DNA of 61,510 bases, filler included, from Jimgerdemannia flammicorona (Eukaryota), in the NCBI GenBank assembly GCA_003990765.1. It is 3 parts of 3 records of this genome, joined end to end, with 100 filler letters (N's around TTAATTAATTAA, not from the genome) between each part and the next. Parts side by side here need not be neighbours in the genome. Positions count along the whole stretch, not along the records: positions 41,078 to 61,510 come from RBNJ01001686.1; 2 more parts are not named here. The stretch is one strand, 5' to 3'. Every line of letters begins with the position of its first letter. The stretch's first letter is position 1. The translations under genes and the position numbers were made by a program. The notes beneath the pieces were generated by a model, which was not told the DNA's origin, searched no databases, and saw only the letters and a program-made list of their open reading frames with translations. This document shows positions 8,301-61,510 of the stretch, one piece after another.

Positions 8301-9351
8301 GCTGGGAAATGAATCATAATTCTACACCACCTTGGATCTGTTCTCAGGATTCTACCAAATCGGCCTTACACCTGAAGCCAGCAAAAGATCAGCCTTCATC
8401 ACCCCTGATAGAACCTATGTCTATCTCCATATACTCTTTGGAATGTGCAATACACCAGCAAGCTTCCAGCGAATAATGAATAGCATCTTCAGAGATGTTA
8501 TGGAAAAATGGATGATGGTATATATAGATAATATGATCATCTTCAGTCAAACAGCCAAGGAGCACTTGGAACATATTGAGAAAATTCTCAGAAGGCTTCA
8601 CAAACATGGCCTCTACATCAAGTCCAAGAAATGCAAGTTTGGAGAAGAAGAGATTGCATACCTCAGACACATTATCAACTATGAAGGAATACATACAGAC
8701 CCTATAAAGATCAAAGCAGTAGCAGCATACCCAGTACCTATCAGTATCACTGAAGCCCGAGCCTTTATAGAACTTGCATCCTACTACAGAAGATTTATTA
8801 GAAGGTTCTCCCACATCGCCAGTCCTATCTATGATCTGTTCAGAAAAGAGGTCAAGTTCCAGTGGACTCAGCAGCAGCAACTAGCCTTGGATGAGCTCAA
8901 GACCAGATTGACCCAGGCCCCAATCCTGAGAAGATCTGACTGGACTCAAGAGTTTATTCTGCAGATGGATGCCAGTGCAATGGGACTTAGAGCTGTCCTC
9001 ATACAAAAGAAGAATAGTGCTGAATATATGGTAGCTTATCTCAGCTGAGGTACCCAAGGAGCTGAGCAGTCCTATGAATCATACAAGTTAGAATACCTTG
9101 CAGTCATCTGGGCTGTAGAGAAGTTCCACTACTATCTAGCTGGCAGACACTTCACCATCCAGACAGATCATTCAGCACTCACCTGGTTGCTCACTACCAG
9201 TGAGCCCAAAGGAATCTATGCCCGATGGATCATGAAGCTGCAAGCATATGATGCCACAATCACCCACCACCCTGGAAGAATCAATGCCAATGCTGATGCC
9301 CTCTCATGGATACTCCAAAGGACTCCACCCCCACGAAATCACCATAAATAG
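5326..9351 (+). pseudogene. Gypsy-A gag-protease-dUTPase-RT-RNase H polyprotein (disrupted)
   Basis: Zinc knuckle ~6127-6168 (GHYASEC), protease IIDTGA ~6790, dUTPase AGMDL...GGVIDSDY ~7450-7830, RT DLFSGFYQI...YIDN ~8335-8535, RNase H DASAMGL...TDHSAL...ADALS. Confidence 0.9.
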
Positions 9352-17163: not shown

Positions 17164-20100
17164 CATAGAGAAAGGAGATAAAGAGAATATAGAAGTCTTC
17201 ATATATTTAGTATATAAGAATAAGAGCAAGACACCCAAGCTTACAGATGAGCAGTAGTATAATAAGATCATCAATAATTATGCCCCTCAAGGAAGATACC
17301 TCCATAGTACTAGGATGTACTGCTCTGAACATCTGAATGACTACTGGTCCTGTATCAGTAAAGTCAGAAAAATCTACTAACAAAAGCATAAACAAGAAGC
17401 TACCAAAGCAAAAAAGAAAGCCAAAGAAGATGACTAACCTTCAGAGCTTTAAGCTAACAGTAATAATGAGAAGAAACAAAAACCAGATATTACTCTCAAG
17501 ATTAAGAAGTTCTATCCTAAAGCCAAGATTCTAGAATATAAGACTAAAGGAGTTATAGAAATAGATCTTATAAGTATTTAAGATACTATCCTCAAACCAC
17601 AGACTACTACTATACTTGGCACTAAAATTAGAGTTAAGTTTCCAGAGAACTATACTGGAATTATCAAGACCAGGAGCAGTCTGGCCAAAAGCAAAATCTC
17701 AGTTAAAGGAAGAGTAATTAACTTTAATTACACTGGTGAGATCTTCCTCATAGTCAGGAATCACAACCCTACTACCCTATTCAAAGTTAAGAAGTATAAT
17801 AGGATTGGTCAGATGCTGATTCATAAAGTTAAGAAGTCCAAGGTCATTGAAGCCATTGAATTCATCAAGACTAAGAGAGAAGAACAAAACTTTAGATCTA
17901 CTGAAAGAGGAGCCTATACTCTTACCAAGATTACCAAACTTGAGTATAAGAAAGATAAGGATCAGAATAAGTATATACATATATACTATTGGAGAAAACT
18001 TTCCTCTAGAGGAACAACTTCTCAAGATTCTGTACTAGAATGAAGGAGTACTTGCTACAGACTTCAGAGACATCCACAATCAAGAACCCAAGTACTACTA
18101 TAAAGTTGACACCAGTGATATCAAGCCCATCTACCAGAAAGCCAGACCTATATCACCTGCCTATAGAGAATGGCTGTAAGCAGATTTCAAGAAAATGGAA
18201 GAAGCTAGAATCATTAAGCAAGCTATTAGCCTCTGGGCTTCACCCATTGTTCTCATCCCAAAGAAAGGAAGTAAGTCTGGAGAGTTTGTCCCAAGACTCT
18301 GCATTGATTACAGAAAGCTCAATACAATCACCAAAAAGGATAGGCAGCTCTTGCTAAATATTCAAGAAATCTTTACTACCCTTAAAAGCAAAGCCAAATA
18401 CTACACCACCTTGGATCTATTCTCAGGCTTCCATCAGATTGGTTTTACTCAAGATGCTAGTGAGAAATTAGTCTTCATCACACCTGATACCACCTATGTC
18501 TACCTATGAATATTATTTGGAATATGCAATACCCCAGTAAGTTTTCAGTAAATGATGAACAGAGTCTTCAATAATGAGATTGGAAAATAGCTCTTTATCT
18601 ATATTGATGATGTGATCATCTTTAGTAATACTATATAGGAACATATCAACTATATATAGCTAGCTCTCAAGAAGCTCAAGGAATATAACCTCTACATCAA
18701 GCCCAAGAAGTGCAAGTATATAGCTCAAGAAATTGCCTATCTAGAACATATCATCAACCAGACTAGAATTCACATAGATCTCATGAAGATTGAGGCTGTT
18801 GTAGCCTACCTAAGACCCAGAATAACTATAGAAGTCCATGTCTTCCTTAGACTAGTCTTCTATTATAAAATATTTATCAAAGAATACTCCAAAATTACAG
18901 TACCTATCTATGAGCTACTGAAGAAGGAGACCAAATTCAAATAGACTAAAGAATATCAAGAAACCTTCAATGAACTCAAGATCAGGTTAACTTAAGCACC
19001 CATCTTCAGAAGACCAGATTGGAACCTAGAGTTCATCTTGCAGACAGATAAGTACTATAGAACTTAGAGCAGTCCTAGCTTAGAAGAAAGATGGATATGA
19101 ATATGTTATCTTCTATACAAGCTGAGATATTTATAGAGCAGAATAGAACTATAAGTTATATAAGCTTGAATACTTAGTAATAGTTTGGGCAGTAGACAAG
19201 TTCTACTACTACCTAGCTGGAAAATACTTCACTATTCAAACAGATCATTCTGCCCTCATCTGGCTATTTTACACTCTGAACTCCAAAGAAATATATGACA
19301 GATAGATCTACAGACTACAAGAGTATAACTGTACTATCAAGTACTGCTTAAGAAGAACCAATGTCAATGCTGATGTACTCTCAAGAATACTCCAAAATAT
19401 CTCCATCAAGATTATTTAATATGAATAAGAAGTTATACTATAGATTAATCAGCTATCTTAGGTAGTGGAAGATATCCAACCACCTCAAACCCTGGACTAT
19501 CACCATTATTAACTAGACTTGAAAATTATTTAAACTAGACAACACTATACTCAGAAAAGAAGAAAAGCTTGTAATACCCAAATATAAAAAGTATCAAGTA
19601 ATGAAAAAAGTATATGAACAAGAATACCTAAGAGGAATCAATATATATGACAAAGTAAGAAAAACTATATAGTGGCCCAAGATAGAAGAAGACCTACACC
19701 AATTTATCAAAGAGTGTGACAAGTATCAAAAACAAAAACAATATCAGTAAGACCAAGTACTCAGATTATCAAGAATTGAGCCTATCTCCTTCCACCATAT
19801 CATGATGGATATCATTGGACTGCTACCAGTAATACTATCAGAAAACTACTACATTATAGTTATTATAGACCTCTTTACCAAATGAATAAAAGCAAAAGTA
19901 TTACAAGAAGTCAATGCTCTCTTTATAGCTAACTTTCTATACTGAGAAATCATCTGTCACTATAAGATACTAAGACAAATCACCACAGATTGCAGCACAG
20001 AATTTGTCAATAGATTCTACAAGATAATATATTAGAAATACAAGATTCAGCATATCAAGACTACTGCATATCACCCTCAAGGAAATAGACAGACAGAAAG

Positions 20101-20439: not shown

Positions 20440-20539
20440 NNNNNNNNNNNNNNNNNNNNNNNNNNNNNNNNNNNNNNNNNNNNTTAATTAATTAANNNNN
20501 NNNNNNNNNNNNNNNNNNNNNNNNNNNNNNNNNNNNNNN
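20440..20539. other. Assembly gap with artificial TTAATTAATTAA spacer
   Basis: N-run, ttaattaattaa (stops in all six frames), N-run. Confidence 0.95.
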
Positions 20540-30661: not shown

Positions 30662-33600
30662 TCACCCAAGCATCTTCGTAATCTCGGTTAGGTAGAACCC
30701 GACCGCGAGGTGGCCACCAGAATTACACATTGCGTCGATAGCATGGTAGGCTGTCTCGTGAAGAGCGTGAAGAGGGTAGGCGCGAAGTTCCTCCTGCCAT
30801 TCGTCACTGGTAAACCAGTCGAGCTGTTCATCTTGATCTGAAGAACCTCAGAAAGCAGAATACGAACTGTCGAGAAGACCGCACCTGAGGAGATGGCCAC
30901 GATGAAACTTATCTCCACAGGGGCAGGGGCGGGGTTGGCCAAAATAGCCATAGCGCCAGGCGAGGGCAGAACACACAAGCCGGGGGGGGAAGGAGAGGAT
31001 GCGATCAGTGCCCCACGACCATAAATGGCCTTTGGGGGTAATGTACCGAATGAGAGTCTGGGAGGAGGAGGCCCATTCCTGCAACAGCTGATCCCGGAGG
31101 AAGGACTGGAGGAAGGAGCGGAGCGAGCGAGTCTTGCGGACCTGGGGACGGAGGTCTCAGTACCAGTCGAGGAAGTCAAGCCAGGAGGTCCAACGCCGGA
31201 ATTTGTCAATAATAGAACCCGGGGGACGCGTGACAAAGCGCTCGCTAAGAGGGCCGATGGGGTTGTTGCCCGACTTGCTACACCAATCCAGGTGGGCTTG
31301 GAACATGCAGCAGAGGTCAGACGTACGACGAAGGAAGGAAGGGAGGCCGAGAATCGAACTGCCGAGCAAGGGACGGCCAGAAAATCCAACCTCCCAGGTG
31401 ACAGCGTCATCAAAGACCTGCTTGGGACGCTTCAACGCCTGAAGCCCCGTGGTAGTAGCTGGACAGGAAGCTCGTAGAAGGGGGAGGCCATACTCCAGCT
31501 GAGGCCTGATGAAAGTTTGTACGATGGCCAGCTTGACCATTGGTGACCAGAGGGGACTACGGGCACGGCAGAACCCAAGAGTTCGTTCCGCCTTCGCCGC
31601 ATTCTGTAACGCCAGGTTGACAAAGTCAAACCCTTTGTTGGTGTACGGCATGCCCAGGTACACGTAGGAGGTGGGTTGCAGGCAGGGTTCGCCCCCAATC
31701 AGCACAGTACAGTCAGCAGGGCCAACATAACTACACTTCTTGGGATTGAGCTCCATACCGTTCACCCGGAGCCAATCTTCGCAGAAATCAACCATCCTTT
31801 GCCCTTCCGCGGCAGTGCGGGGGGTGAGGGCGATATCATCAGTAAAGAAGAGCCCGAGGGGAAAGTTGTACTCCTTGAACTGCTCATCAAAGGAGGCGGC
31901 AAGGGGATCGATAAAGACATCAAAGAGCTAGGGGGAGAGGAGGGAGCCCTGGAAAAGGCTGCACTCAGTGGGGACCGAAGGGGTGACGAGGCCATTAACA
32001 ACCACCTGGTAGAAACAGTGGTTAAACAGGCTTCGGATAATACTAAGGAGGGCCGCATCGGCACCTCACGCCTCAAGGCGGGAAAGAATGCGCTTGAGGG
32101 GGACTCAATCGTAAGTCTGCCAGAGGTCCAAGAAGACATAGTGGCCCCATCCCTTAGCCCACGTCTCGTGTTATAACAGGACATGAGAAAGGGACGAGAA
32201 GTGGGTTCGGAAGCCGCCTTGGCAGCGCGACATTTCTGTCAGGCCACTTCGGCTCTTGACGTATCCTTCCAAACACTGCTCGAAGAGTCTACGAAACATT
32301 TCAGTCAGAGCAATAGGGCGAAATCCATCGATCGTATGCGATTCCTCCTTCTTGGGGACCAGGGTGATGATGGCTGAGTTCTAGTGGCGAGGAGTGAGCC
32401 CCCAGACCACACACATCTGGAAGAAGAACGAGAGGGCTTTCGAAAGGCTACAGGGGGCGTCCTTCTCACCCGCCATCATCTGAAGGATCCGGACGTGCAA
32501 GGAGTTGGCACCACATGCCTTAGAGAGGGGGTAGCTGCAGACAGCACTCCAAACCGCAGGTTGGTCAAACCAAGACTGCAGCCCAAGAGCGCCCACGCCA
32601 AGTGGGAAGACATCTTCAGAGTCATCGAGACGAAGGGAGGCATCTGGCTGGCTGAAGATAGTGGTAAAGTGAGCAACCACGTCATCGAATACAGGGACAT
32701 TGAGGGAGCGAGACTGAAGGGGTGCGGAGGGGGTGGAGCGATACGCTCGCTTAAAACCACAGATGGCATCGGAGACCGAAGATGCACTGCGGAGGAGGTC
32801 ATGCCTAGGGAGCAGCGCTGCTCTGATTTCTCTTGTATCATACGAGCCAAGAATGTCCTCACAGACAGACTGCAGACCAGAGGTCAAAAGAGCATCAAGG
32901 GAATCCACAAACTGCTGGCGATCATCCACAGAGCGAAAGCCAGCGATATGGTCCCTAACAGAGTAGATAGACTTGATAACGGTATCGCAAATAATATCCG
33001 CTGATTCCCGAAGGTGAGCTTGAATGATCGGGTCAGTCAGGTATCTCGCAGAGTAACAACGGACGCCAGCCAAGGCAGCAACTGGCGAGGGGGAGAAGGG
33101 GAAGGAGACAGTGAGGAGGGAGGGGAGATCGGTAGCGACAGGAGGAGTGGAGCAGGTGAGGGACGTGTGGAGGGACGTGGTGGTGAATGCGTGGTCAACG
33201 AGTGTGGATCCAGCCACTGGGGTCAGGTGGTTCAACAACCACGTCATCAAGGAGGTGTCGACGACATCCATCCGATCGCGAGGACCAGAGTTGACGTCAC
33301 CAAGGCGGGCACCGAAATGGGTATTGATGTCACCGATCAAGAGGGCCTTACCCGGGAAGGGTCCAGACACTAGATCACGGAAACCACCAATGGGAAGAGA
33401 GGGGGGGGCGTAAACCCCAACCAAAGCCAGGCCCTGGAACATGAGCCGGATATGGAAGGGGTCGGCAGAGGACTCGGAAATGAGGGGGGCGAAACGGTTT
33501 GACACAAGGACCACGAGACCACCATTCTGGTGACCCACGATTCTGTGCGACGCCGGAGGGGAGGACATGTGAATGAGCGGAGAGGGATGCAGTGGGATGT

Positions 33601-33709
33601 GCCACGTTTCACATACGAAAATAACATCGAGGGCAGGACCAATCAACCGACTGAGCACATCGAACTTGTCCTGGGGTAGTCCGTGTGCATTGAGGAATCC
33701 GACTCTCAT
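30662..33709 (-). pseudogene. LINE copy 1 ORF2: APE endonuclease + reverse transcriptase + C-terminal CCHC-like motif (~1015 codons, a few stops/frameshifts)
   Basis: MRVGFLNAHGL, FVCETW, GDIN, VDHAF (APE); QGGFR, QGSLLSP, FTDD (FADD in copy 2), LNPKKC, YVYLGM, FIRPQLEYG (RT); CPCGDKFHRGHLLRC. Confidence 0.92.
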
Positions 33710-35204
33710 TGGGGGCTAGGTGCGTTAGCGCCAACAGCGTGGGAAGCACCTGAGGCAGAAGCTTCAGCTTCCAAATCCATCGCCATGTCACCCATCACAG
33801 CCACAGTACCACCTGCCTTCAAAGCAGGGCCGGCCATCGGGGAGGCGAAGGAGGGGAGGGTGAGGCCGAGTTCTGCGGCACATGCTCTGTAGAAGGTCTG
33901 TACCTCAGGCCTCTTCGTAGTGGCTTCGCCTGTCAACTACCGGACCTGAGCATGGAATGATTGGAGAACCTATGTCTTCACGGCCTCCGTGGCGTTCTTG
34001 TTGTGTGGGAGTATAGGGTCCTAGGCCGACAGCACCGAGAACCCAAGCGCCTTCATCTTCTTTTGGAACGCCGTGACATAATCAGGGCAGAGAAGAAATT
34101 CGATGGTCGATGCCGAAACATACAACATGTTGAGGACCTTTGACAACATCACATGGACATCATACAAGTTCTTCCGGATTTGCCCGATCTTCAGATGGGC
34201 GAATCCGTCAATGTAGACGTGCTGCAGCCTAGCGCCCTTCTCAGTCGGCAACAAATGAGAGGTCGGCTTGCGGGTTATGCGTGAAAGGGCGGTGGCAGCA
34301 GCTGCCCTTTCCATCTTGGGGTAGGCCTGGGTCCTATCTTTGATAGAGACCTTCTTGGCGGCGGCGGCGTACGATTTGGGGGGGGCGGGGGTCGAAGCGG
34401 GGGATGAAGACGGACCGGCGGCACTGGGTCCCACAGGCGTAGCCTGGGGCACTGGCCCGGGAGCCTTGGCCTTGTCCTTTTTAGGGGGCGCAGCTTTAGC
34501 AGCCGGAGGTGCAGCCGTGGGAGTTACCTCCTTTGGCAGCGCACCAGACTGCGACGCAGCGGCTTTAGCGGCCCGCTTATCTACTCGCTTCTGGGCCTTC
34601 GACCGCGTGTTCGCGGCAGGACCAGTAGGAGGGGGGGCCGAGGACTTGGGGGGGGCAGGTGTGGATGGGGCAATGGGGGTACTTCCCGAAGGAGCACCAG
34701 ATGTTGAGGGGGCGGTGGGCGCATGATGCGCAGCAAGCTGCGCCATCAGCTGGGCGTTGATCTTGGCCAGATCGGCTACTTGAGTCAGAAGATCTGAGAT
34801 CTGCTTCCTTATCATGGCCATCTCTATGACCAGATCGGGTTCGGCTGAGGGGCCTGCACGATTGGCCGTTGGGGTCATTCCCAAACTAGTGTTCAGGCGA
34901 CCACGCTTGTTCTGGTTGAGGGGCGGGGGTGTGGGAGAATAGTTGATGTGCTGGGTATCGTGGTCCGAATCGGAAGAGATCGCAATCTCTTCGTCATCTT
35001 CCGCGTCGCACAGAGAAGATAAATATGCCGATATCGGTCGTGCATCCCGCACGACCTGCACATCACCATAAGGCTACCCTCGCCGAAGCCAAGGGAAAGG
35101 AGACCGATGCCGTGACATTCAGCGCAGCGGAGCGAGGTGCCGAAGCGCGCGAAAAGTTGGGTGGCGTTGCCGTCATCGCCGACGACGGAGGAGGTGGCCG
35201 ACAT
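33706..35204 (-). pseudogene. LINE copy 1 ORF1 (gag-like; CxxC..CxxC, coiled coil, Pro/Ala linker, C-terminal domain)
   Basis: ORF pieces 34893-35204, 34021-35061 and 33706-33936 join after one 1-bp frameshift and nonsense changes; the stop overlaps the ORF2 start (ATGA). Confidence 0.8.
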
Positions 35205-35821: not shown

Positions 35822-38800
35822 TCACCCAAGCATCTTCGTAATCTCGGTCAGGCAGAACCCAACCGCGAGGTGGCCACCAGAATTATACATGGTGTCTATG
35901 GTGTGGTAGGCGGTTTCGTGAAGAGCGTGAAGAGGGTAGGCACGAAGTTCCTCCTGCCATTCGTCACCGGTAAACTAGTTGAGCTATTCTTCTCAATCTA
36001 GAGAACCTCGGAAAGCAGAATACGAACCGTCGAGAAGACCGCACCTGAGGAGATGGTCATGATGAAACTTATCTCCACAGGGGCAGGGGCGGGGTTGGCC
36101 AAAATAGCCATAATGCCAAGCGAGAGCACAACGCACAAGCCGGGGGGGGAAGGAGAGGACACGGTCGGCTCCTCATGACCGCAAGCAGCCTTTGGAGGTG
36201 ATGTACCGAACGAGAGCCTGGGAAGAGGAGGCCCATTCCTGCAGCAGCTGATCCTGAAGGAAGGACTGAAGGAAGGAGCGGAGCGAGCAAGTCTTGCGGA
36301 CCTGGGGACGGAGGTCCCAGTACCAGTCGAGGAAGTCAAGCCAAGAGGTCCAACGCCGGAACTTGTCAATGATAGAACCCGGGGGACGCGTGACAAAGTG
36401 CTCGCTAAGGGGACTGATGGGGTTGTTGCCCGACTTGCTACACCAATCCAGATGGGCTTGGAACATGCAGCAGAGTTCAGACATACGACGAAGGAAGGTA
36501 GGGAGGCCAAGAATCGAACTGCCAAGCAAGGGCCGGCCAGAAAATCCAACTGCCCAAGCGACAGCATCATCAAAGACCTGCTTGGGACGCTTCAACACCT
36601 GAAGCCCCGTGGTAGTAGCCAGATAGGAAGCACGTAGAAGGGGAAGGCCATATTCCAGCTGAGGCCTGATGAACATTTGTACGATGGCCAACTTGACCAT
36701 TGGCGACCAGAGGGGACCACGGGCGCGGCAGAAACCAAGAGTACGTTCCGCCTTCGCCGCATTCTACAACGCTAGGTTGACAAAGTCAAACCCTTTGTTG
36801 GTGTACGGCATGCCCAGGTACACATAGGAGGTGGGTCGCAGGCAGGGTTCGCCCCCAATCAGCACAGTACAGTCGGCTGGGCCAACATAACTACACTTCT
36901 TGGGATTGAGCTCCATACCATTCGCCCGAAGCCAATCTTCACAAAAATCGACCATCCTTTGCCCTTCCGCGGCAGTGCGGGGGTAAGGGCGATGTCATCG
37001 GCAAAGAAAAGCCCGAGGGGAAGTCGTACTCCTTGAACTGATCATCAAAGGAGGTGGCGAGAGGATCGATAAAGACATCAAACAGCCAAGGGGAGAGGAG
37101 AGAGCCCTGAAAGAGGCCATGCTCAGTGGGGACCGAAGGGGTGACGAGGCTATTAACAACCACCTGATAAGAACAGTGGTTGAACAAGCTTCGAATAATG
37201 CTAAGGAGGGCCACATCGGCACCTTGCGCCTCAAGGCGAGAAAGAATGCACTTGAGGGGGACTCGGTCGTACACCTGCCGGAGGTCCAAAAAGACACGGC
37301 GGCCCCATCCTTTAGCCCACGTCTCGTGCGAAAGCAAGACATGAGATAGGAATGAGAAGCGGGTTCGGAAGCCACCTTGGCAGCGCGACATTTCTGTCAG
37401 GCCACTTCGGCTCTTGACATATCCTTCCAAACACCGCTCGAAGAGTCTACGAAACATTTCAGTCAGAGATAGGGCGAAATCCATCGATCGTATGCGATTC
37501 CTCCTTCTTGGGGACCGGGGTGATGATGGCTGAGTTCCAGCGGTGGGGAGTGAGCCCCCAGATCATGCACATCTGGAAGTAGAATGAGAGGGCTTTCGAA
37601 AGGCTACAAGGGGCATCCTTCTCACCCGCCATCACCCGAAGGATCCAGACATGCAAGGAGTCAGCACCACACGCCTTTGAGAGGGGGTAGCTGCGGATAG
37701 CTCTCCAAACTACAGGCTGGTCAAACCAAGACTGCAGCCCAAGAGCTCCCATGCCAAGGGGGAAGACGTCCTCAGAGTCATCGAGACGGAGGGAGGCGTT
37801 CGGCTGCCCGAAGATAGTGGTAAAGTGAACAACCACATCATCGAACACCGGGACGTTGGGGGAGCGAGATTGGAGGGGGGCGGAGGGGGTGGAGTGATAT
37901 GCTCGCTTGAAACCACGAATGGCATCAGAGACTGAAGATGCACTGCGAAGGAGGTCCCGCCTAGGAAGCGGCGCTGCCCTGATTTCTCTTGCATCATACG
38001 AGCCAAGAATGTCCTCGCAGACTGACTGTAGACCAGAGGTCAAAAGGGCGTCAAGGGAATCTACAAACTGCTGGCGATCTTCCATGGAGCGAAAGCTGGC
38101 AATGTGGTCCCTGACAGAGTAGATGGACCTAATAACGGTATCGCAGATGATATCTGCTGATTCCCGAAGGTGGGCTTGGACGACCGAGTCGGTCAGGTAT
38201 CTCGCAGAGTAATGACGGACACCTGCCAAGGCAGCAACCGGCGAGGGAGAGAAGGGAAAGGAGATGGTAAGGAGGGAGGGGTAGTCGGTAGCGACAGGAG
38301 GGGTGGAGCAGGTGAGGGACGCATGGAGGGACGCGGTGGCGAATGCATGATCAACGTGTGTAGATCCAGCCACCGGGGTCAGGTGGTTCAATGACCACGT
38401 CATCAGGGAGGTGTCAATGACATCCATCCGGTCGCGAGGACCAGAGTTGACGTCACCAAGATGGGCACTGAAGCGGGTATTGATGTCACCGATCAAAAGG
38501 GCCTTACCCGGGAAGGGTCCAGACACCAGATCACGGAAGCCACCAATGGGAAGAGAGGGGGGGGCGTAAACCCCAACCAAAGCCAAGCACTGGAATATGA
38601 GCCACATATGGAAGGGGTTGGCAGAGGACCCGGAAACAAGGGGGGCGAAACGGTTTGACACAAGAACCACAAGACCACCATTCTGGTGACCCACGATTCT
38701 GTGCGATGCTGGGGAGAGGACATGTGAACGAGCGGAGAGGGACGCAGCGGAATGTGCCACGTTTCACATACGAAAAGAACGTCGAGGGCAGGACCAATCA

Positions 38801-38864
38801 ACTGACTGAGCACATTGAACTTGTCCTGAATTAGTCCGTGTGCATTGAGGAACCCAACTCTCAT
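35822..38864 (-). pseudogene. LINE copy 2 ORF2 (APE-RT, frameshifted)
   Basis: Same motifs as copy 1, including FRPIS, QGGFR, FLDLRQVYDRV, QGSLLSP and FADD. Confidence 0.9.
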
Positions 38865-40298
38865 TGTGGGCCGGGTGCGTTAGCACCACCAGCGTGAGAA
38901 GCACCTGAGGCAGAAGCTTCAGCTTCCAAATTCATCGCCATATCGCCCGTCATGGCCACAGTACCACCCACCTTCGAAGCAGGGCTGGCCAATGGGGGGG
39001 CGAGGGAGGGAAGGGTGAGGCCGAGTTCCGCGGCCCATGCCTTGTAGAAGGTCTGCACCTCAGGCCTCTTCGCAGTGGCTTCGCCTGCCAACTGCCGGAC
39101 CCGAGCATGGAAGGATTGGAGTACCGGTGTTTTCACGGCCTCTATGGCATTCTTGTTGCGTGGGAGGGCAGGGTCCCAGGCCGAAAGCACTGAGAACCCG
39201 AGTGCCTTCATCTTCTTTTGGAATGCCGTGACATAATCAGGGCAGAGCAGGAATTCGATGGTCGACGCCGAGACGTACGACATGTTGAGAACTTTTGACA
39301 ACATCATATGGACGTCGTACAAGTTCTTCTGGATCTGCCTGATCTTAAGATGGGCAAATCCATCGATGTAAACGCGCTGCAGCCTAGCACCCTTCTCAGT
39401 CGGCGACAAATGAGAGGTCGGCTTGCGAGTCATGCGCGAGAGGGCGGCTGCGGCAGCAGCCCTTTTTGTCTCAGGGTATGTCTGGGTCCTATCTTTGATA
39501 GAAACCTTCTTGGCGGCGGTGGGTCCTGCAGGCGTAACCTGGGGCACTGGTCCAGGGCCTTAGCTTCGCCCTTTTTAGGGGGCGCGGCTTTGGCGGCCGG
39601 GGGTACAGCTGTGGGAGTTGCCTCCTTTGGCGGTGCACCAGACTGCGACGCGGTGACTTTAGCAGCCCGCTTATCCGCTCGCTTCTGGGCCTTCGACCAC
39701 GTGTTCGCGGCAGGACCAGTAGGAGGGGGGGCCGAGGACTTGGGGGGGGCGGATGTGGAAGGGGCGGCGGGGGTACCTCCCAAGGAGGTACTATACAGCA
39801 ATGAAGTCGGGGCGGCTGACCTTTCGGCAAGCTGTGCCATGAGTTGGGCGTTGATCTTGGCCAGTTCGGCCACTTGAGTTAGCAGATCCGAGATCTGCTT
39901 CCTCATCGCGGCCATCTCCGTGACCAAATCGGGGTCGGCTGAGGGGCCCGCATGACTGGCCATCGGGGTCATTCCCAAACTAGTGTTCGGGCGACCACGC
40001 TTGTTCCGATTGAGGGGCGGGGGCGTGGGAGAGTAATTTTAGCGCTGGGTGTCGTGGTCTGAATCAGACGAGATCGCAATCTCTTCGTCATCTTCCGCAT
40101 CGTGCAGGGAAGATAAATATGCCGATATTGGTCGTACATCCCCGCACGACTGCACATCGCCATAAGGCTACCCTTGCCGAAGCTGAGGGAGAGGAGACCG
40201 ATGCCGCGACATTTGGCGCAGCGGAGCGAGGCACTGAAGCGCACGAAGAGATAGATGGCAGTGCCGTCATTGCTGATGACGGAGGAGGAGGCCGACAT
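38861..40298 (-). pseudogene. LINE copy 2 ORF1 (frameshifted)
   Basis: MSASSSVIS...RCAKCRG; RKQISDLLTQVAELAKINAQL; RLQRVYIDGFAHLK; ATGA overlap with ORF2. Confidence 0.8.
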
Positions 40299-40977: not shown

Positions 40978-41077
40978 NNNNNNNNNNNNNNNNNNNNNNN
41001 NNNNNNNNNNNNNNNNNNNNNTTAATTAATTAANNNNNNNNNNNNNNNNNNNNNNNNNNNNNNNNNNNNNNNNNNNN
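40978..41077. other. Assembly gap with artificial TTAATTAATTAA spacer
   Basis: N-run, spacer, N-run. Confidence 0.95.
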
Positions 41078-53974: not shown

Positions 53975-55409
53975 ATAGATATAATCACTACTAGTAAGCT
54001 TATTCAAGATAACAAGATTTTTTTCTATATAGTTTAAATGTCTAATTACTAAATCTTCAGCTCTTACCTTATCCCTTTGTCTGTAGATAAGATCATCTTT
54101 TAAAATCATTTAGCAGACAAATTAAAGTTTGAAAAAAATGATTTTTTGAAACATTGTTTTTCTGTTAAAAATATATCTTAATTTGTTTAAAAACAAATTT
54201 TTTTTTTTTTGTAAAATTTTTACCAAAGGTAGAATTATTATATAAAAAATTATTGGTAAATTTTTTTTTAAAAGCTATTATGATTTTAAAAGTTATAACC
54301 TTTTAAAATCTTGCCTCTAAATATAGGTGCAAAACAGTCAAAGGGATATGAAGTCAGTCAATTCTTTATAATAGTATCTAATTTTATTTGAGAAATTTTG
54401 ATTAAGTATAGTTATTTTTATATAACTTTAAAAATTTAATAAGAAAATTAATTCTTAAAAAAAGAGAGATGTAATAATTTCTTAATTATATTTTAGTCAT
54501 AGTACATATATTTTCATATCTTTCTCTAGTTTTTTCTTATCTTTTCTTGAATATTCTACAATATTCCAGTATCTTCTAAATGCTTAGAAATTCTCTCTTA
54601 GTATTAAAACTTTACTAGAATATTCTTATCTTTTTTTAATACTAAGTATCCTGTCTTAGCTAGATATAGAACCTCTTAGAATATTATAGAATCTTATTAG
54701 TCATCTTTGTTGAGATTCACTTTCTGGGCTTTTCTTTTTATTTCTAACATCTTTCTATATCTTTCTTTCAGATCTTATATAAATATCTACTTTCTTTGCT
54801 TGAATAAAGCTCAGAATATTTTCTCTAGAAACCCTTTAAGACCACTTGGACCTATAAGTATCTCTTTGAACTACTTTAGGTCCACCAGAACTTTTCAGAT
54901 TTAGCCACTTCCTCTTAAAGAGACTAGAACCATTATATCTATTGAGCTGACATATTACAGTACAGACATCTACAGAGTTTTTTTTTTTTTTTTTTCTCAA
55001 TTAACTTGTGCTGATAAGAAAATTATGAAAACGTTTATTACTTCGAGTAAATACCGGACATCATCATGATCACATTCCATCATTCATCACGGATAGGGGC
55101 TCATTCCGCTTTTGCTACTCGCCAGCCGATTTCTCGATATGCCGATCCATTCAAGGATGACAGATACAGGTTTTTAACTAAGAGACAGACCCCGCTTATG
55201 TTCTGCCCTACCCGTTTCGTTTCAGACATCGATCCCTAATTCCACTACCCAAACGACATACGAACACTTGAGTAATTGCTCTAGAGCTGGAGTGTCATTA
55301 CCACATCAATCTGTTATAATAGGTTGCCCTACCACTTTTGCCAATACTATTAGCAACAGAGGAATATATATAAATTTATATACATGCAAAGATATAATGT
55401 GCGCCATTT

Positions 55410-58400
55410 CTACAAGCTTATCCTGTTCAAAATCCGCGCTTCGGCTGGTGCGATGACTCCCTTGTCAACACCACTCGCTACAGGGGAAGGCACGGGATGT
55501 ACGCGCGTGGTTGTCAGCTGGAAGGCCAAACAGAAGAAGGCAAAAGTAACGCGTTTGGTTCCTACGTACATTGTAGGTTCAGGTTCTGCAGGCCCGTGTT
55601 CGTTTTTAGCACGTCGGCTAGTGCGATGACTCCCTTCTCCCCAACATCATTTCCTAAATAGGAACGCACGGGATGTACGCGCGCGGTTGTCAGCTGGAAG
55701 GCCAAAGAGACGAACATAAAAACGTAACACGCTTCATTCCTATGTACCGCCTAAGTTCAGGATCTGCAGGCCCATGTTCGATTTCAGCGCATCGGCTAGT
55801 GCGATGGCTCCCTTCTCGCCAACTCGATTGGCTACAGGGGAACGCACAGGATGCACGTGCGCGTGGTTGTTAGCTGGAAGGCCAAACAGACGAAGGCAAA
55901 AGTAACGTGCTTCGTTCCTACGTACCGTATAGATCCAGGTAGAGCAAGCTCGTGTTCGTTTTCAGCGCGTCGGCTAGTGCGATGACTCCCTTCTCCCCAA
56001 CACAATTCCCTACAGGGGAACGATCGGGATGTACGCGCGCGGTTGTCAGCTGGAAGGTCAAACAGACGAAGACAAAATGTAACGCGCTTCGCTCTTACGT
56101 ACTTCCTAGGTTCAGGTACTGCAGGCCCGTGTTCGATTTCAGCGCGTCGGCTAGTGCGATGGCTCCCTTCTCACCAATAATGTTAGCTACAGGGGAACGC
56201 ACGGGATGTACGCGCGCACGGTTGTCAGCTGGAAGGCCAAACAACCGAACGCAAAAATGTAACATGCTTCGTTCCTACATACCATGTAGGTTCAGGCACT
56301 TCAGGCGCGTGTTTGTTTTAAGCGCGTCGGCTAGTGCGATGACTCCCATGTCGTCAACAATATTCACTACAGGGAAACGAATTGGATGTGCGCGCGCGGT
56401 TGTCAGCTGGAAGGTCAAACAGATGAAAGCAAAAACGTAACGCGTTTCGTTCCTACGTACGGCTTAGCTCCAGGTCCTGCAGATCCGTGTTCGTTTTCAG
56501 CACGTTGGCTAGTGCGATGGCTCCCTTCTCGCCAACACCATTACCTAGAGGAGAACGAATGGAATGTGCGCGTGCGGTTGTCAGCTGGAAGGCCAAACAG
56601 ATGAACGCAAAACGTAACGCGTTTCGTTCCTGCGTACGGCCTAGGTTCAGGTCCTGCAGGCTCGTGTTCGTTTTCAGCGCGTCGGCAAGTGCGATGGCTC
56701 CCTTGTCGTCAACAACATTCACTACAGGGGAACGCATAGAATGTGCGCGCGCGGTTGTCGGCTGGAAGCCCAAACAGACGAACAAAAAAACGTAACGCGT
56801 TTCGTTCCTACGCACTGCCTAGGTCTAGGATCTGCAGGCCCGTGTTCGTTTTCAGCACGTTGGCTAGTGCGGTGGCTCCCTTCTCGCCAACACGATTACC
56901 TACAGGAGAACGAACGGAATGTACGTGCGCGGTTGTCAGCTGGAAGGCCAAACAGACGAACGCAAAAATGTAACGCGTTTCGTTCGTACGTACAGCCTAG
57001 GTTCAGATTCTGTAGGCCCGTGTTCGTTTTCAGCGCATTAGCTAGTGCGATGACTCCGTTCTCGCCAATATAACTCGCTACAGAGGAACGCACGGGATGT
57101 ACGCGCGTGCGATTGTCAGCTGGAAGGCCAAATAGACGAACGCAAAATCGCAACGCGCTTCGTTCCTACGTACAGCGTAGGTTCAGGTCCTGCAGGCCCG
57201 TGTTCGTTTTCAGCGCGTCGGCTAGAGCGATGGCTCCTTTCTCCCCAACATCATTTCCTACAGGGAATGTACGCATGCGGTTGTCAACGGAAGATCAAAC
57301 AGACGAACGCCAAAACGTAACGCGCTTCGTTCCTACGTACGGCCTAGATTCAGGTCCTGTAGGCTCGTGTTCGATTTCAGCGCGTCAGCTAGTGCGATGG
57401 CTCCGTTCTTGCCAACACCATTATCTACAAGGGGAATGTACGCGCGCAGTTGTCAGCTGGAAGGCCAAACAGATGAATGCAAAACGCAACACGTTTCGTT
57501 TCTACGTACTGCCTAGGTTCAGGTCCTGCAGGCCCGCGTTCGTTTTCAGCGCGTTGGCTAGTGCGATGGCTCCCTTTTCGCCAACACGATTACCTACAGG
57601 AGAACGAACGGAATATATGCGGGCGGTTGTCAGCTGGAAGGCCAAACAGACGAACGCAAAAACGTAACGGCTTTGTTCCAACGTACAACCCAGGTCCAGA
57701 TTCTGCAAGCCCGTGTTCGTTTTCAGCGCGTCGGCTAGTGTGATGGCTCCCTTCTCACCAATAACATTCCCTACAGAGGAACGCACGGGATGTACGTGCG
57801 TATGGTTGTCAGCTGGAAGGTCAACAGACGAACGCTAAAACGTAACGCGCTTTGTTCCTACGTACAGCCTAGGTCCAGATTCTGCAGGCCCCTGTTCGTT
57901 TTCAGCGCGCCGGCTAGTGTGATGGCTCCTTTCTCGCCAACAACGTTCCCTACAGAGTAACGCACAGGATGTACGTGTGTGCGGTTGTCAGCTGGAAGGC
58001 AAAAACAGCGCGCTTCGTTCCTACGTACCGTATAGGTTCAGGTTCTGCAGGCCCGTGTTCGTTTTCAGCGCGTCGGCTAGTGCGCTGGCTCCTTTCTCCC
58101 CAACACCACTCCCTATAGGAGAACGCGCAGGATGTACGCGCGCGGTTGTCAGCTGGAAGGCCAAACAAACGGACGCAAAAACGTAACGCGCTTCGCTCCT
58201 ACGTACCGCCTAGGTTCAGGATCTGCAGGCCCGTGTTTGATTTCAGCACATCGGCTAGTGCGATGACTCCCATATCCCCAACATCATTTCCTACATAGGA
58301 ACGCACAGGATGTACGCGCACGGTTGTCAGCTGGAAGGTCAAACCGACGAACGCAAAAACGTAACACGCTTCGTTCCTACATACCACCTAGGTTCAGGTT

Positions 58401-59000
58401 GTGCAAGCCCGTGTTCGTTTTCAGCGCGTCGGCTAGTACGCTGGCTCCTTTCTCGCCAATACTACTAACTATAGAGATAAAATGAATAGATTGTGGTTGT
58501 CAACTGAACACCAAATTAAATGAATCGAAAATATAATGTGGTTCATTCCTACATACAGTTTACATTCAAGGCTTGCAGGCTTGTGTTTATTTTCAGTGCT
58601 TTGGCTAGTACATGGGCTCCTTCCTCGTCCATGTAAAAATCTACAGAATTTATAAATGTGGCTGTCAGCTGACACACTGGACGAACGAACGCAAAAAAAT
58701 GCAACGTGGTTCGTTCCTACACTGGTGGACCAACGAATCCGCAATATTTTTCCAAAACGCCTCGCCAAATATGGATACATCATCATATGTATTGAAGGTT
58801 CTTCCGCGACAAAGGTGCACCTCCTTCCAGAGCAGTGGGAGGGCGGCAGCGCGCCAGTCAAGTGAGACAAGTGAGCAATTGAAGAGGTCGGTACGATTGA
58901 GATAATGCCCAATGGCCTCTCCTTTTGGGAGAAATTTGAAGATGGCAGTGAGCGTTTCGAAAGGAAGTCTTGGGGAGGTCATAATAGTGGCGAGATGCAT
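55410..59000 (-). CDS. F-box + 18-19 ribonuclease-inhibitor-type (28-aa) LRR protein, 20 exons, ~613-619 aa
   Basis: Exon 1, 59000(or 58982)-58721: LPFETLTAIFKFL...DLFNCSLVSLDWRAAALPLLW (F-box-like). 84-nt exons: 58640-58557, 58468-58385, 58290-58207, 58112-58029, 57949-57866, 57770-57687, 57593-57510, 57424-57341, 57257-57174, 57077-56994, 56899-56816, 56721-56638, 56544-56461, 56366-56283, 56186-56103, 56009-55926, 55831-55748, 55653-55570. Last exon 55477-55410 (TAG). All introns GT..TAG with a (C/T)TGAC branch site; the spliced frame is open. The exon 1 donor (GTAGGA) is the least certain. Confidence 0.88.
55440..58720. repeat. Tandem array of ~178-bp exon+intron units
   Basis: The unit ...gttgtcagctggaaggccaaacagacgaacgcaaaaacgtaacgcg..cgttcctacgtac...gttttcagcgcgtcggctagtgcgat... 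recurs about 19 times. Confidence 0.95.
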
Positions 59001-60230
59001 TAAAGAATGGTTTACCGTGCCTTAAAAGTATTAATTAATTAAGTGCAACGTGGTCCCCATGGAGACTGGGACGTGGTCGTCATAGCCTGCGTCACCATTC
59101 ACAGTCCATCGTCCAGTGGTAAATTATTGCTAAAACATCAATTTCTCAAAATTGTATATGCTTTATTAAAAAATAAAATATACCAAAGAAAATTAGGTAA
59201 ATAATTTTTGCAACATAAATATATAGCTTCAACCATAGTAGAAAGGTAGTTTGAAAATTTAAGACAGTGCATTGCAAGTAGCTGTATGGTCGAAGCCGCG
59301 TCCAAAAGACACCCTAGAGCGCTGCTATGTATCTGGTGCCACGACACTCCACTCACCCACGTTTTAGGAATAGGAAGGCGCATTCAAGGGCCGAGATGGC
59401 AAGTCCATAGTGATAAAATATTATGCACTCGCGAGATCGTATGACAAAGATCTGTTTGCATGTACGTCTGGTGAATACATGCACGAGGATGCAACAAAGG
59501 ATAATCACATCAGCTATTTCTGAATGGACGTGCGCTCTCGACAGATGCGCACGCCCACCTACACGTCGACGCCGCAACGTGGGATCAAATGACGAACAAG
59601 GTGCAAGACGAATCGATCAGGCGCAGGCTGAGCAGCCGCCGGAGTAACCGGCCCAAATAATCGAATCCAAGATTTTCGAGACCTCGAGCATGAACGTCTA
59701 CATTCCGTTGAGATTGTTAGCCTAGCCGCTGCGGTTGGAGGACTGACAGCGACGGCTGGAGGTCTGACGGTGAGGATGGAGGCTAACGGTGATAGTCGGA
59801 GAATGACAGAAAGAGGTGAAAGAGAAGTTCTTCATTAGTGTAGAGCAAGTTTGGTAACACTTTTTTGTACGTGATTGAATAAAATGGCCCCGCATCGACA
59901 AATGTTCGCGATGAATCATGTACTTGCGAAGCGCATATGTAGTTTGCTGTTCATCGCCTACGACGAGTGGGTAAATCAATGTAGGGTATCATGCGAGGCT
60001 CTGCGGAAAATAGCGTTAATGCCTATTAATGCCAATTCTCACATTGCAATATTTCGCGCACCGGCGACGATCATGTCCATGGTTCGGTGTCTCAGCCTCT
60101 TTTTACGGGCGGTTGCTGTCGTCATTTAAGTGTTTAAATTTTTGATGATGTCATCAATATAGTGGTTATAGTCCAACATCACGTGATAGTCGTTTCAATT
60201 TCGACGAGAGCAGCCACATAGGAAATTAAG

Positions 60231-60280: not shown

Positions 60281-61048
60281 AGGGGTATGCAAATTTAACT
60301 GTATTCTGTGTGTTCAGACCCGACAGATCTTCCCAACGTTCTCAAAGACCAAAACGTTCCATAGTCGGCACTCAAAGCCAGCAAGCACATGAGCGTTGAC
60401 GGCACTCTGATCATTGTGCAATGGTTCAATAATGTTCCTGCGGCCCCAGGAATGAGGGACGGCGTCGTAGGGCAGACGAAAGAGGCGTTGATCAATACCA
60501 TTATTGCAAGTGGTGGTATAGCACTCACCGCATTTCATTTCCGAAAGGGTGACTGCGCGCAGGAGATGCCTCATTGGTACGAGAAACCTCATTTTAAATT
60601 CTATATTAATGGCTGACCCGTTTTTCTTTCAAAGGTGTCGTCATCGCGCTGGTGTAACTGACGTTGGGCAAGCTTGCCGTATCAGCAATCTAACCGATTT
60701 GGGTGTGCTGGGGGCGGAGTCGTTGCGCTTCATGTTCAATCTCAGTTGGTGAAAAACGACAAAGTACTCCTGAGCACGCCGTTGATCTTCAAGGGTTTGT
60801 TAACTGTATATTTGTACAAGAATTGCATGGATTTCATTTCCTCGCTTGCTGTGTGTGTTGAGAACAATGTATTGGGAACAGGGATAGGCAATGAAGAATA
60901 AATATCTTATGCCAGCAGATTTTCGACTTTACGGGAAAGGTGTGACGCAGTATGCAATGAGGTGACGTCGCAAAGTGGAGTCAAATGGTCACGAAAAAAA
61001 CTTGGGCAACACGCAACACGCCAACACGCTCTCGTCCTCACATTCGTA

Positions 61049-61429
61049 ATGTCCACCTACACCGCCTTTCCACAGGCCACCACCGTTCCCCCGCACCCCA
61101 AAGCCGCCGCCGCCGCCTCTGTCCATCCGCTGCGCCCCTACTATGCTCCTCCCCAGTCGCAGCTCTACTTGCCCAACGGCGGCTCCGCCCCACAGTACGA
61201 CGACGACGACTACGAGTTCCTCGACTCCCGCGCTGCCGCCAAGGAGCTCGCTAATTTTGCCGTTGTAAAATTCTTGACTACCGCTGTCGGATCGCCATTC
61301 GATGTTGGGAAGACCCTTCTGCAGGTCCAGTATGTTCCCAGCGACGACGTCGAGGGGATGGAGGGAGCCGAAGAGACGGCCGAGGAGGTTATACCGGAAA
61401 ATGGTGGAGGGAATAGTGGCGATGGGGAG
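61049..61429 (+). CDS. UGO1: First exon of a Ugo1/SLC25A46-like mitochondrial outer-membrane fusion protein
   Basis: N-terminal HPLRPYYAPP motif and carrier-like SPFDVGKTLLQVQY followed by an acidic tract, as I recall for fungal Ugo1; GTGAG donor at 61430; gene continues past the window. Confidence 0.72.
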
Positions 61430-61510
61430 GTGAGGTTTTAATTTGATTTTCCTTGATTGGAAGGCGGGTAGTTTTTTTTGTGAACCACGAGGAAGGGACT
61501 GGAGAGGTGG

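Follow-up and report, generated by a model that had tools for sequence, protein, structure and literature searches.

A predicted F-box gene built from one-repeat LRR exon cassettes with homologous introns

In the available text of Hoss et al. (2019, PMC6642158), one 28-amino-acid (aa) leucine-rich repeat (LRR) per exon is encoded by most human NOD and NLRC genes, and the LRR exons of NOD-like receptors (NLRs) are strictly frame-preserving. The LRR-ROCO genes of the brown alga Ectocarpus use one-LRR exons of 72 nucleotides (nt; 24 aa) described as 'phase 0', and the accessible part of that work reports intronic non-coding and reversed LRR remnants, taken as recent shuffling, as well as positive selection at residues of the binding face (Zambounis et al. 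2012, PMC3341825; a follow-up appeared in 2024, PMC11378527). The available portion of a survey of fungal NLRs describes WD, ANK and TPR repeats with a repeat identity above 85%, and no LRR (Dyrka et al. 2014, PMC4986451). Here we describe a predicted F-box/LRR gene in a 61,510-nt stretch of DNA from assembly GCA_003990765.1 (hereafter the window). The gene joins an F-box exon to 18 frame-preserving exons of identical length, each encoding one 28-residue LRR and most of them separated by introns that are copies of one another.

Stop-to-stop frames place the coding sense of the gene on the minus strand, and the gene runs from 59000 to 55410. A preliminary description of the locus had proposed an F-box exon followed by 18 exons of 84 nt in phase 1-1 with an open spliced frame. 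A script that sought 84-nt segments bordered by AG and GT and holding an open LRR-like frame bore out the 18 exons, and the strand assignment and a terminal exon are now added. Exon 1 (58721..59000, 280 nt) encodes a domain recognised by Pfam as F-box-like and ends in phase 1; its first ATG lies at 59000 and its second at 58982, the latter corresponding to the methionine at which the homologous proteins P0001 and P0002 begin. Intron 1 (58641..58720, 80 nt, GT..AG) is a diverged copy of the array introns, with 62–71% identity to the others, and exon 2 (58557..58640, 84 nt) encodes a diverged first LRR with 55–64% nt identity to the other cassettes. Seventeen canonical cassettes follow, E3 to E19 (55570..58468), each comprising an 84-nt phase 1-1 exon for one 28-aa LRR and a homologous intron of 79–96 nt. 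Listed from high to low coordinates, E3 to E7 occupy 58468-58385, 58290-58207, 58112-58029, 57949-57866 and 57770-57687; E8 to E13 occupy 57593-57510, 57424-57341, 57257-57174, 57077-56994, 56899-56816 and 56721-56638; and E14 to E19 occupy 56544-56461, 56366-56283, 56186-56103, 56009-55926, 55831-55748 and 55653-55570. The array closes with intron 19 (55478..55569, 92 nt), the final copy of the array intron, and a terminal exon (55410..55477, 68 nt) that encodes a truncated, degenerate LRR and ends with a TAG stop at 55412-55410. Every one of the 18 exons is exactly 84 nt long, is flanked by AG and GT and splits a codon 1|2 at both borders (phase 1-1). All 19 introns run GT..AG, with lengths of 80, 88, 94, 94, 79, 95, 93, 85, 83 and 96 nt for introns 1–10 and 94, 94, 93, 94, 96, 93, 94, 94 and 92 nt for introns 11–19. 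Joined by script, the spliced frame is open over 619 codons, or 613 residues if the second ATG (58982) is used.

The repeat structure extends across exon and intron alike. Introns 3–19 share a mean pairwise nt identity of 85.0%, in agreement with the earlier proposal of one 28-aa LRR per symmetric exon with homologous introns between them; the corresponding value for exons E3–E19 is 80.9%, and introns 1 and 2 are merely 57–71% like the remaining introns. Tandem Repeats Finder reports a 178-nt period with 14.6 copies at 55436-58004 and a 356-nt row with 8.6 copies that extends to 58459, each with 81% matches. The two-unit super-repeat implied by the 356-nt row was rejected, as units at lag 2 are no closer than those at lag 1 (0.834 versus 0.830). 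A double intron motif occurs nine times in the window and not at all in 100 shuffles, which excludes chance as the origin of the array. Searches of the whole window found no second LRR-cassette array, and within it no LRR-like frames beyond the 18 exons or on the opposite strand. The double intron motif was also carried by 19 metagenome loci; none of these (0/19) showed blastn or tblastn similarity to the array, and they were set aside as chance matches.

The spliced product would consist of 93 aa from the F-box exon followed by LRR units, with no NACHT or NB-ARC domain among its parts. Exon 1 matches the Pfam family F-box-like (PF12937) with an E value of 6.9e-9 and 35.8 bits (cut-off 24.3), upholding the proposed F-box N-terminus, and the classic F-box family (PF00646) with 23.7 bits (cut-off 20.5); F-box families were the only ones matched in the Pfam scan of this exon. 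Downstream, 18 full LRR exons and the truncated one form a C-terminal interaction domain in a single open spliced frame. The 18 exon peptides, 28 residues each, align without gaps to the consensus NxVGEKGAIALADALKTNTGLQxLNLG. When a profile of these peptides was compared with solved structures, rabbit NOD2 chains ranked first (E 2.8e-8), followed by LRRC34, tropomodulin and radial spoke protein 15. The relative P0002, 56% identical over 239 residues, was folded as a stand-in for the spliced protein. In the resulting model the LRR part has a predicted local distance difference test score (pLDDT) of 72–95, and its best fold match is again NOD2 (E 2e-10, root-mean-square deviation 1.8 over 149 columns). 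The repeats are 28-residue LRRs of the ribonuclease inhibitor (RI)/NOD type, with rabbit NOD2 as their best solved match.

Evidence for expression came from contigs of two public runs, X1 and X2, placed on 55300-59100 (word shares 0.17 and 0.06); the joints and pieces described here are among those listed, beyond which lie 27 joints and 404 pieces. Intron 1 is removed in X2 record 14 (joint 58640|58721), intron 11 in both X1 (depth 12.4) and X2 (56899|56994) and intron 14 in X2 record 11 (56366|56461), and an X2 joint at about 55831|55926 lies within 2 nt of the predicted borders of intron 17. X1 pieces match E12 and E13 with 0 differences, and another X1 contig stops exactly at the 58721 donor. 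At least 4 of the 19 predicted introns are therefore seen spliced out among the joints listed, and such joints at predicted introns indicate that the gene is transcribed and spliced. The predicted splicing pattern is in this way upheld for those introns, the others having no listed junction.

Differences between units are concentrated at particular residues. Across 17 units, amino acid entropy is highest at unit positions 1 (10 residues), 3 (8), 24 (5) and 28 (6); these variable sites correspond to the x positions of the LxxLxLxxNx motif. G8, L12, A13, L16, K17, N19, L22, L25 and L27 are invariant in all 17. The x positions of LxxLxLxxNx line the concave face of LRR solenoids, and in the P0002 model a strand spans the residues equivalent to 24–26. 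We estimated the ratio of non-synonymous to synonymous divergence (dN/dS) by pooling Nei–Gojobori (NG86) estimates over units. At six x positions chosen beforehand dN was 0.59 and dS 0.77, and at all other positions dN was 0.116 and dS 0.207. The variable x-position codons diverged about three times faster than two neutral proxies, the diversity of the introns (0.16) and the distance at 4-fold sites (0.137, from 5 sites only). The ratio at the six positions stays at 0.77 because NG86 assigns the same codons a high dS (0.77); a ratio of 1.10 was reached only at four positions picked after the data had been seen. This pattern suggests that the x positions may have been under diversifying selection, or that long-maintained diversity sits at them on a conserved scaffold. 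The same hypervariable codons account for the excess divergence of exons over introns. Constraint on the introns, considered as a reason for their greater likeness, was rejected, since 4-fold sites in the scaffold are about as conserved as the introns.

Selection acts on reading frame and exon length. The unit alignment contains gaps in none of 84 exon columns versus 32 of 96 intron columns. The units diverge from their consensus by about 12% without any stop; when random substitutions matching each unit's differences were introduced, only 2.5% of 3000 trials left all 17 units free of stops, and the mean was 3.5 stops. Diversity at codon positions 1, 2 and 3 is 0.20, 0.17 and 0.205, and mean amino acid identity is 69% pairwise among 14 units selected by a strict pattern and 79% by column over 18 units.

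A search with exon 1 returned 15 representative proteins, and only these, at E≤0.001 among 1.84 billion, with N-terminal identities of 39–67%. All nine relatives that were looked up are named Jimgerdemannia flammicorona, as is the top match P0001, and six of the nine bear the source name 'F-box domain-containing protein'. P0001 and P0002 combine F-box-like with LRR_6 and have the exon 1/intron 1/exon 2 layout in common with the window gene, and the spliced protein is 56% identical to both over 237–239 residues by script. LRR_6 scores are 66.8 bits for P0001, 46.0 for P0002 and 60.3 for P0003 (cut-off 23.4). Ten further members (P0020–P0030 apart from P0001) carry a different domain after the F-box; given these other C-termini, the RI-type array seems to have been fused secondarily to an F-box exon specific to the lineage.

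P0003 was found by a word-based protein search with a read-through frame across two cassettes as the query. This J. flammicorona entry, labelled 'LOW QUALITY PROTEIN' (543 aa), matched at E 7e-140 and contains translated copies of the array intron in several frames. The exon-plus-intron cassette is therefore also present in another genome and another gene, and a related cassette array occurs in J. flammicorona. In the word-based search P0003 was the sole clear cassette relative, accompanied by one weak match; generic RI-type LRR proteins with 34–47% identity came next. Compared between loci at the protein level, P0003 units are 81% alike mutually and 73% alike to the window units. The models of P0001 and P0002 also include translated intron, and that of P0003 includes out-of-frame exon sequence as well, a mis-modelling that explains a spurious Pfam match to Whi5. 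Cassette genes thus appear to be systematically mis-annotated in public J. flammicorona models. The read-through search additionally retrieved P0016, from the early-diverging fungus Gonapodya sp., in which NB-ARC (E 1e-17), TPR_12 and LRR_6 (E 1e-22) lie on one chain. P0016 combines NB-ARC with RI-type LRRs, in contrast to the fungal NLR survey of 2014, LRR-free in its available text (PMC4986451).

Taken together, we favour the interpretation, at a probability of roughly 0.7, that the locus holds a genuine gene, transcribed and spliced, whose product is most likely a substrate receptor of an SCF (Skp1–cullin–F-box) ubiquitin ligase, with a NOD2-like LRR solenoid that arose by cassette amplification. 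Binding to Skp1, a ubiquitin-ligase role and the kind of target are predictions from the sequence. Several observations weigh against this interpretation. Fifteen of the 19 introns have no junction among the rows listed, an X1 contig at 55354-55584 retains intron 19, and X1 and X2 carry the label 'RNA?' as a guess and are not on record as RNA. In the P0002 model, the F-box part is unreliable (pLDDT 30–41 over residues 1–90, from a 3-row alignment). Three single exons fall below the LRR_6 cut-off (E 0.12, E 0.96 and no match), a shortfall attributable to the 24-position model straddling the exon border. Finally, dN/dS does not exceed 1, being 0.75 overall and 0.77 at the six preset positions.

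The architecture also invites a more dynamic interpretation, which we consider unlikely: that the locus encodes an actively diversifying cassette receptor, in which unequal crossover in the introns, exchange between paralogues and/or exon skipping would keep producing new LRR numbers and orders, and with them a repertoire of recognition specificities directed, for example, against endobacteria, viruses or non-self hyphae. Symmetry and equal length in 18 of 18 cassettes, the 85% likeness of the introns and the placement of variation at the x positions of LxxLxLxxNx all speak for it. So does the position of the exon border: position 1, the most variable residue, is encoded by the codon split at the junction, and any new exon join would therefore re-code it. 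Free exchange of cassettes is nevertheless limited by the same split codon. E4, E10 and E19 begin with GA, and would yield TGA after any of the seven exons that end in T (exon 1, E2, E6, E7, E10, E11 and E19), so not every join is viable. The 'interchangeable' cassettes of the preliminary description are accordingly interchangeable as regards frame, with these 3 of 18 as exceptions.

Recent turnover would be expected to leave its mark on the similarity among units, and here the case for ongoing diversification weakens. Whole-unit identity is 0.81–0.85 at each lag from 1 to 16 units apart, the unit tree is star-like, and no pair exceeds the 89.6% likeness of U5 and U10. Flat identity over distance and a star-like tree fit a single old amplification burst. 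Continuing local duplication or homogenisation does not fit the unit identities, and the ongoing unequal crossover that had been proposed is not visible at this locus. The P0003 units, closer to each other than to those of the window, hint at separate homogenisation; P0003 is at the same time the sole clear cassette relative from the word search, P0001 and P0002 having been reached through exon 1.

The contigs bear on exon skipping in the same two-sided manner. At ≥90% likeness the array is covered by 198 contigs from X1 and 148 from X2, which suggests several expressed paralogues. Many joints coincide with exon borders or miss them by a few bases, yet link non-adjacent or reversed cassettes; one of them, a 273-nt skip from 56543 to 56817, would delete exactly E13. 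In X2, 'goes back' joints at 55747-56009 and 56105-57077 run from where a downstream cassette ends to where an upstream one starts, with breakpoints within 1–2 nt of exon borders; they could stem from back-spliced RNA or from paralogues whose cassettes stand in a different order. The pieces forming such joints differ from the window by about 5–10%, and some skipping or reordering joints have sides shorter than 30 nt, of which the placement tool warns. These features are as expected for transcripts of paralogues that were placed on whichever units resemble them most, and for the 'goes back' joints, whose pieces are about 10% off the window, they favour paralogues over back-splicing. The simplest reading is that skip and reorder joints are transcripts of paralogues with the same 84-nt exons, which in these data look the same as exon skipping or back-splicing. 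Joints that might be taken for the exon-skipping isoforms foreseen in the preliminary description are more probably paralogue transcripts, their pieces being only about 90% alike to the window.

A further alternative, which we judge improbable, retains the solenoid and removes the ubiquitin connection: the gene would encode an LRR scaffold protein without substrate targeting, acting as a binding partner or inhibitor, and its F-box-like part would cap the N-terminus as a degenerate or structural element. The presence of the non-immune, non-ligase proteins LRRC34, tropomodulin and radial spoke protein 15 among the best LRR matches is compatible with such a role, as is the low confidence of the F-box part in the P0002 model. 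Against this stand the F-box-like and classic F-box scores, both above the curated Pfam cut-offs, the conservation of the N-terminal domain at 39–67% identity over 15 representatives, and the F-box name borne by six of nine looked-up relatives. A decaying or non-functional array, with an open frame left over from recent duplication, is highly improbable: the overall dN/dS of 0.75, the near-equal diversity at the three codon positions and the low depth (5–12) of exactly matching X1 contigs would suit it, but the units carry no stops after about 12% divergence (simulated probability 0.025), exon indels are absent and intron indels many, all 19 splice-site pairs are intact, spliced contigs are present and nine scaffold residues never vary among the 17 units.

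For the favoured interpretation, an SCF receptor with an amplified NOD2-like solenoid, we propose the following course of events. The host would be an Endogonaceae-like fungus (Mucoromycotina), and the C-terminal part of the protein would be wholly a solenoid of about 19.5 RI/NOD-type 28-residue LRRs. A single 178-nt cassette, consisting of an 84-nt phase 1-1 exon and a ~94-nt intron, would have been amplified in what looks like one old burst, with units that have since diverged by about 15–20%. Fusion with an F-box exon would have brought the array into a lineage-specific F-box family, in which the remaining members end in another kind of C-terminal domain. In the mature protein the F-box would dock on Skp1, and the LRR surface, with its repeat-to-repeat differences at x positions, would bind the target.

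A role in non-self or symbiont recognition, raised when the locus was first described, is speculation. In its most far-reaching form, the gene would belong to an Endogonaceae family of ubiquitin-ligase receptors whose NOD2-like cassettes are reassorted within and between loci and by splicing, the split codon re-coding the junction residue, so as to give combinatorial recognition of intracellular non-self such as endobacteria or mycoviruses, with the target then ubiquitinated. We hold this to be quite unlikely. If true, it would mean LRR-based combinatorial recognition in fungi, where the available part of the NLR survey found no LRR.

The array introns have further common features. Introns 3–19 (for example 56900-56993 on the minus strand) all keep a branch-point-like CTGAC (in CCAGCTGACAAC) about 36 nt upstream of the 3′ splice site. 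The intron ends show a 6-bp complementarity, GGAACG/CGUUCC, which forms in 92.6% of cells; this pairing is conserved, but it shows no compensatory changes and does not exceed the shuffled controls. The consensus structure of the introns from RNAalifold was weak (−5.17 kcal/mol, 1 covarying pair), and five introns folded singly had z-scores of −0.3 to −2.3.

Elsewhere the window contains retroelement-like sequence. LTR (long terminal repeat)-retrotransposon-like frames at 6450-9048 on the plus strand match an aspartyl protease (weakly), a dUTPase (E 5.5e-21) and a reverse transcriptase with RNase H (E 9e-24), and a second dUTPase-like frame lies at 17582-18043 (+). On the minus strand, about 30690-35070 and about 36000-40040 hold two similar copies of a long retroelement-like unit whose translated frames resemble each other; one frame in these copies is a borderline match to RVT_1 (E 6.8e-7), and frames of 444 aa and 350 aa fall into no Pfam family. 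Runs of 44 N occur in two pairs, at 20440-20483 and 20496-20539 and at 40978-41021 and 41034-41077, as masked or gap stretches near retroelement sequence. Next to the F-box/LRR gene, an open frame at 60902-61441 (+) has sub-threshold Pfam matches only, to mitochondrial carrier (E 0.09) and DUF7703 (E 0.11).

In the literature on Jimgerdemannia, Endogonales and Mucoromycota we found no published description of this F-box/LRR cassette family. The one-LRR exon-cassette layout has precedents in animal NOD genes and in receptors of brown algae; for fungi it has apparently not been described before. The locus offers a clean case in which the duplicated LRR unit is visibly an exon plus its intron, and shows how the one-LRR-per-exon layout of animal NOD/NLRC and brown-algal ROCO genes can arise. 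It also sets NOD2-like LRRs behind an F-box in a mycorrhizal fungal lineage that diverged early, and these LRRs vary from repeat to repeat where ligand-facing positions are expected. A candidate module for LRR-based recognition, linked to ubiquitination, would broaden the known range of recognition proteins in fungi. A practical warning also follows: the three inspected J. flammicorona models of the family (P0001, P0002 and P0003) contain translated intron.

Comparison with known systems places the predicted protein between several groups. Like SCF receptors of the FBXL type, it has an N-terminal F-box followed by an LRR solenoid. Classical FBXL repeats are of a cysteine-containing type of about 26 residues, whereas the repeats here are uniformly of the 28-residue RI/NOD type and fall outside that cysteine-containing class as usually defined; in further contrast to FBXL proteins, most relatives of this F-box (P0020–P0030) have another C-terminal region. 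With the WD, ANK and TPR NLRs of fungi, as the available part of the survey presents them, the gene shares repeats that are unusually alike within one protein and a few variable positions on the binding surface, a non-self role having been proposed for those NLRs. The fungal NLRs differ, within the same text, in having NACHT or NB-ARC domains and repeats that lie inside exons, and their identity of more than 85% at the amino acid level exceeds the values found here, 69% in 14 units and 79% by column in 18.

The accessible account of the Ectocarpus ROCO genes provides a parallel in gene structure. In both systems a symmetric exon of constant length encodes each LRR, so that cassettes can be added or lost in frame, and variable positions fall on the ligand-binding face, a placement that follows here from textbook LRR geometry; the ROCO proteins have been proposed as candidate recognition receptors. 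Unlike the algal genes as described there, the exons here are 84 nt long and in phase 1-1, an F-box takes the place of the ROC-COR GTPase, and the window contains no intronic or reversed LRR remnants and bears no sign of recent unit exchange. Vertebrate NOD/NLRC genes differ from the present gene in its F-box N-terminus without NACHT or NB-ARC, its introns that are still 85% alike and its fungal host. They resemble it, as far as the available text describes them, in encoding a 28-aa RI-type LRR per 84-nt frame-preserving exon with the border at a fixed place in the repeat, and NOD2 is the best solved match of the repeats described here.

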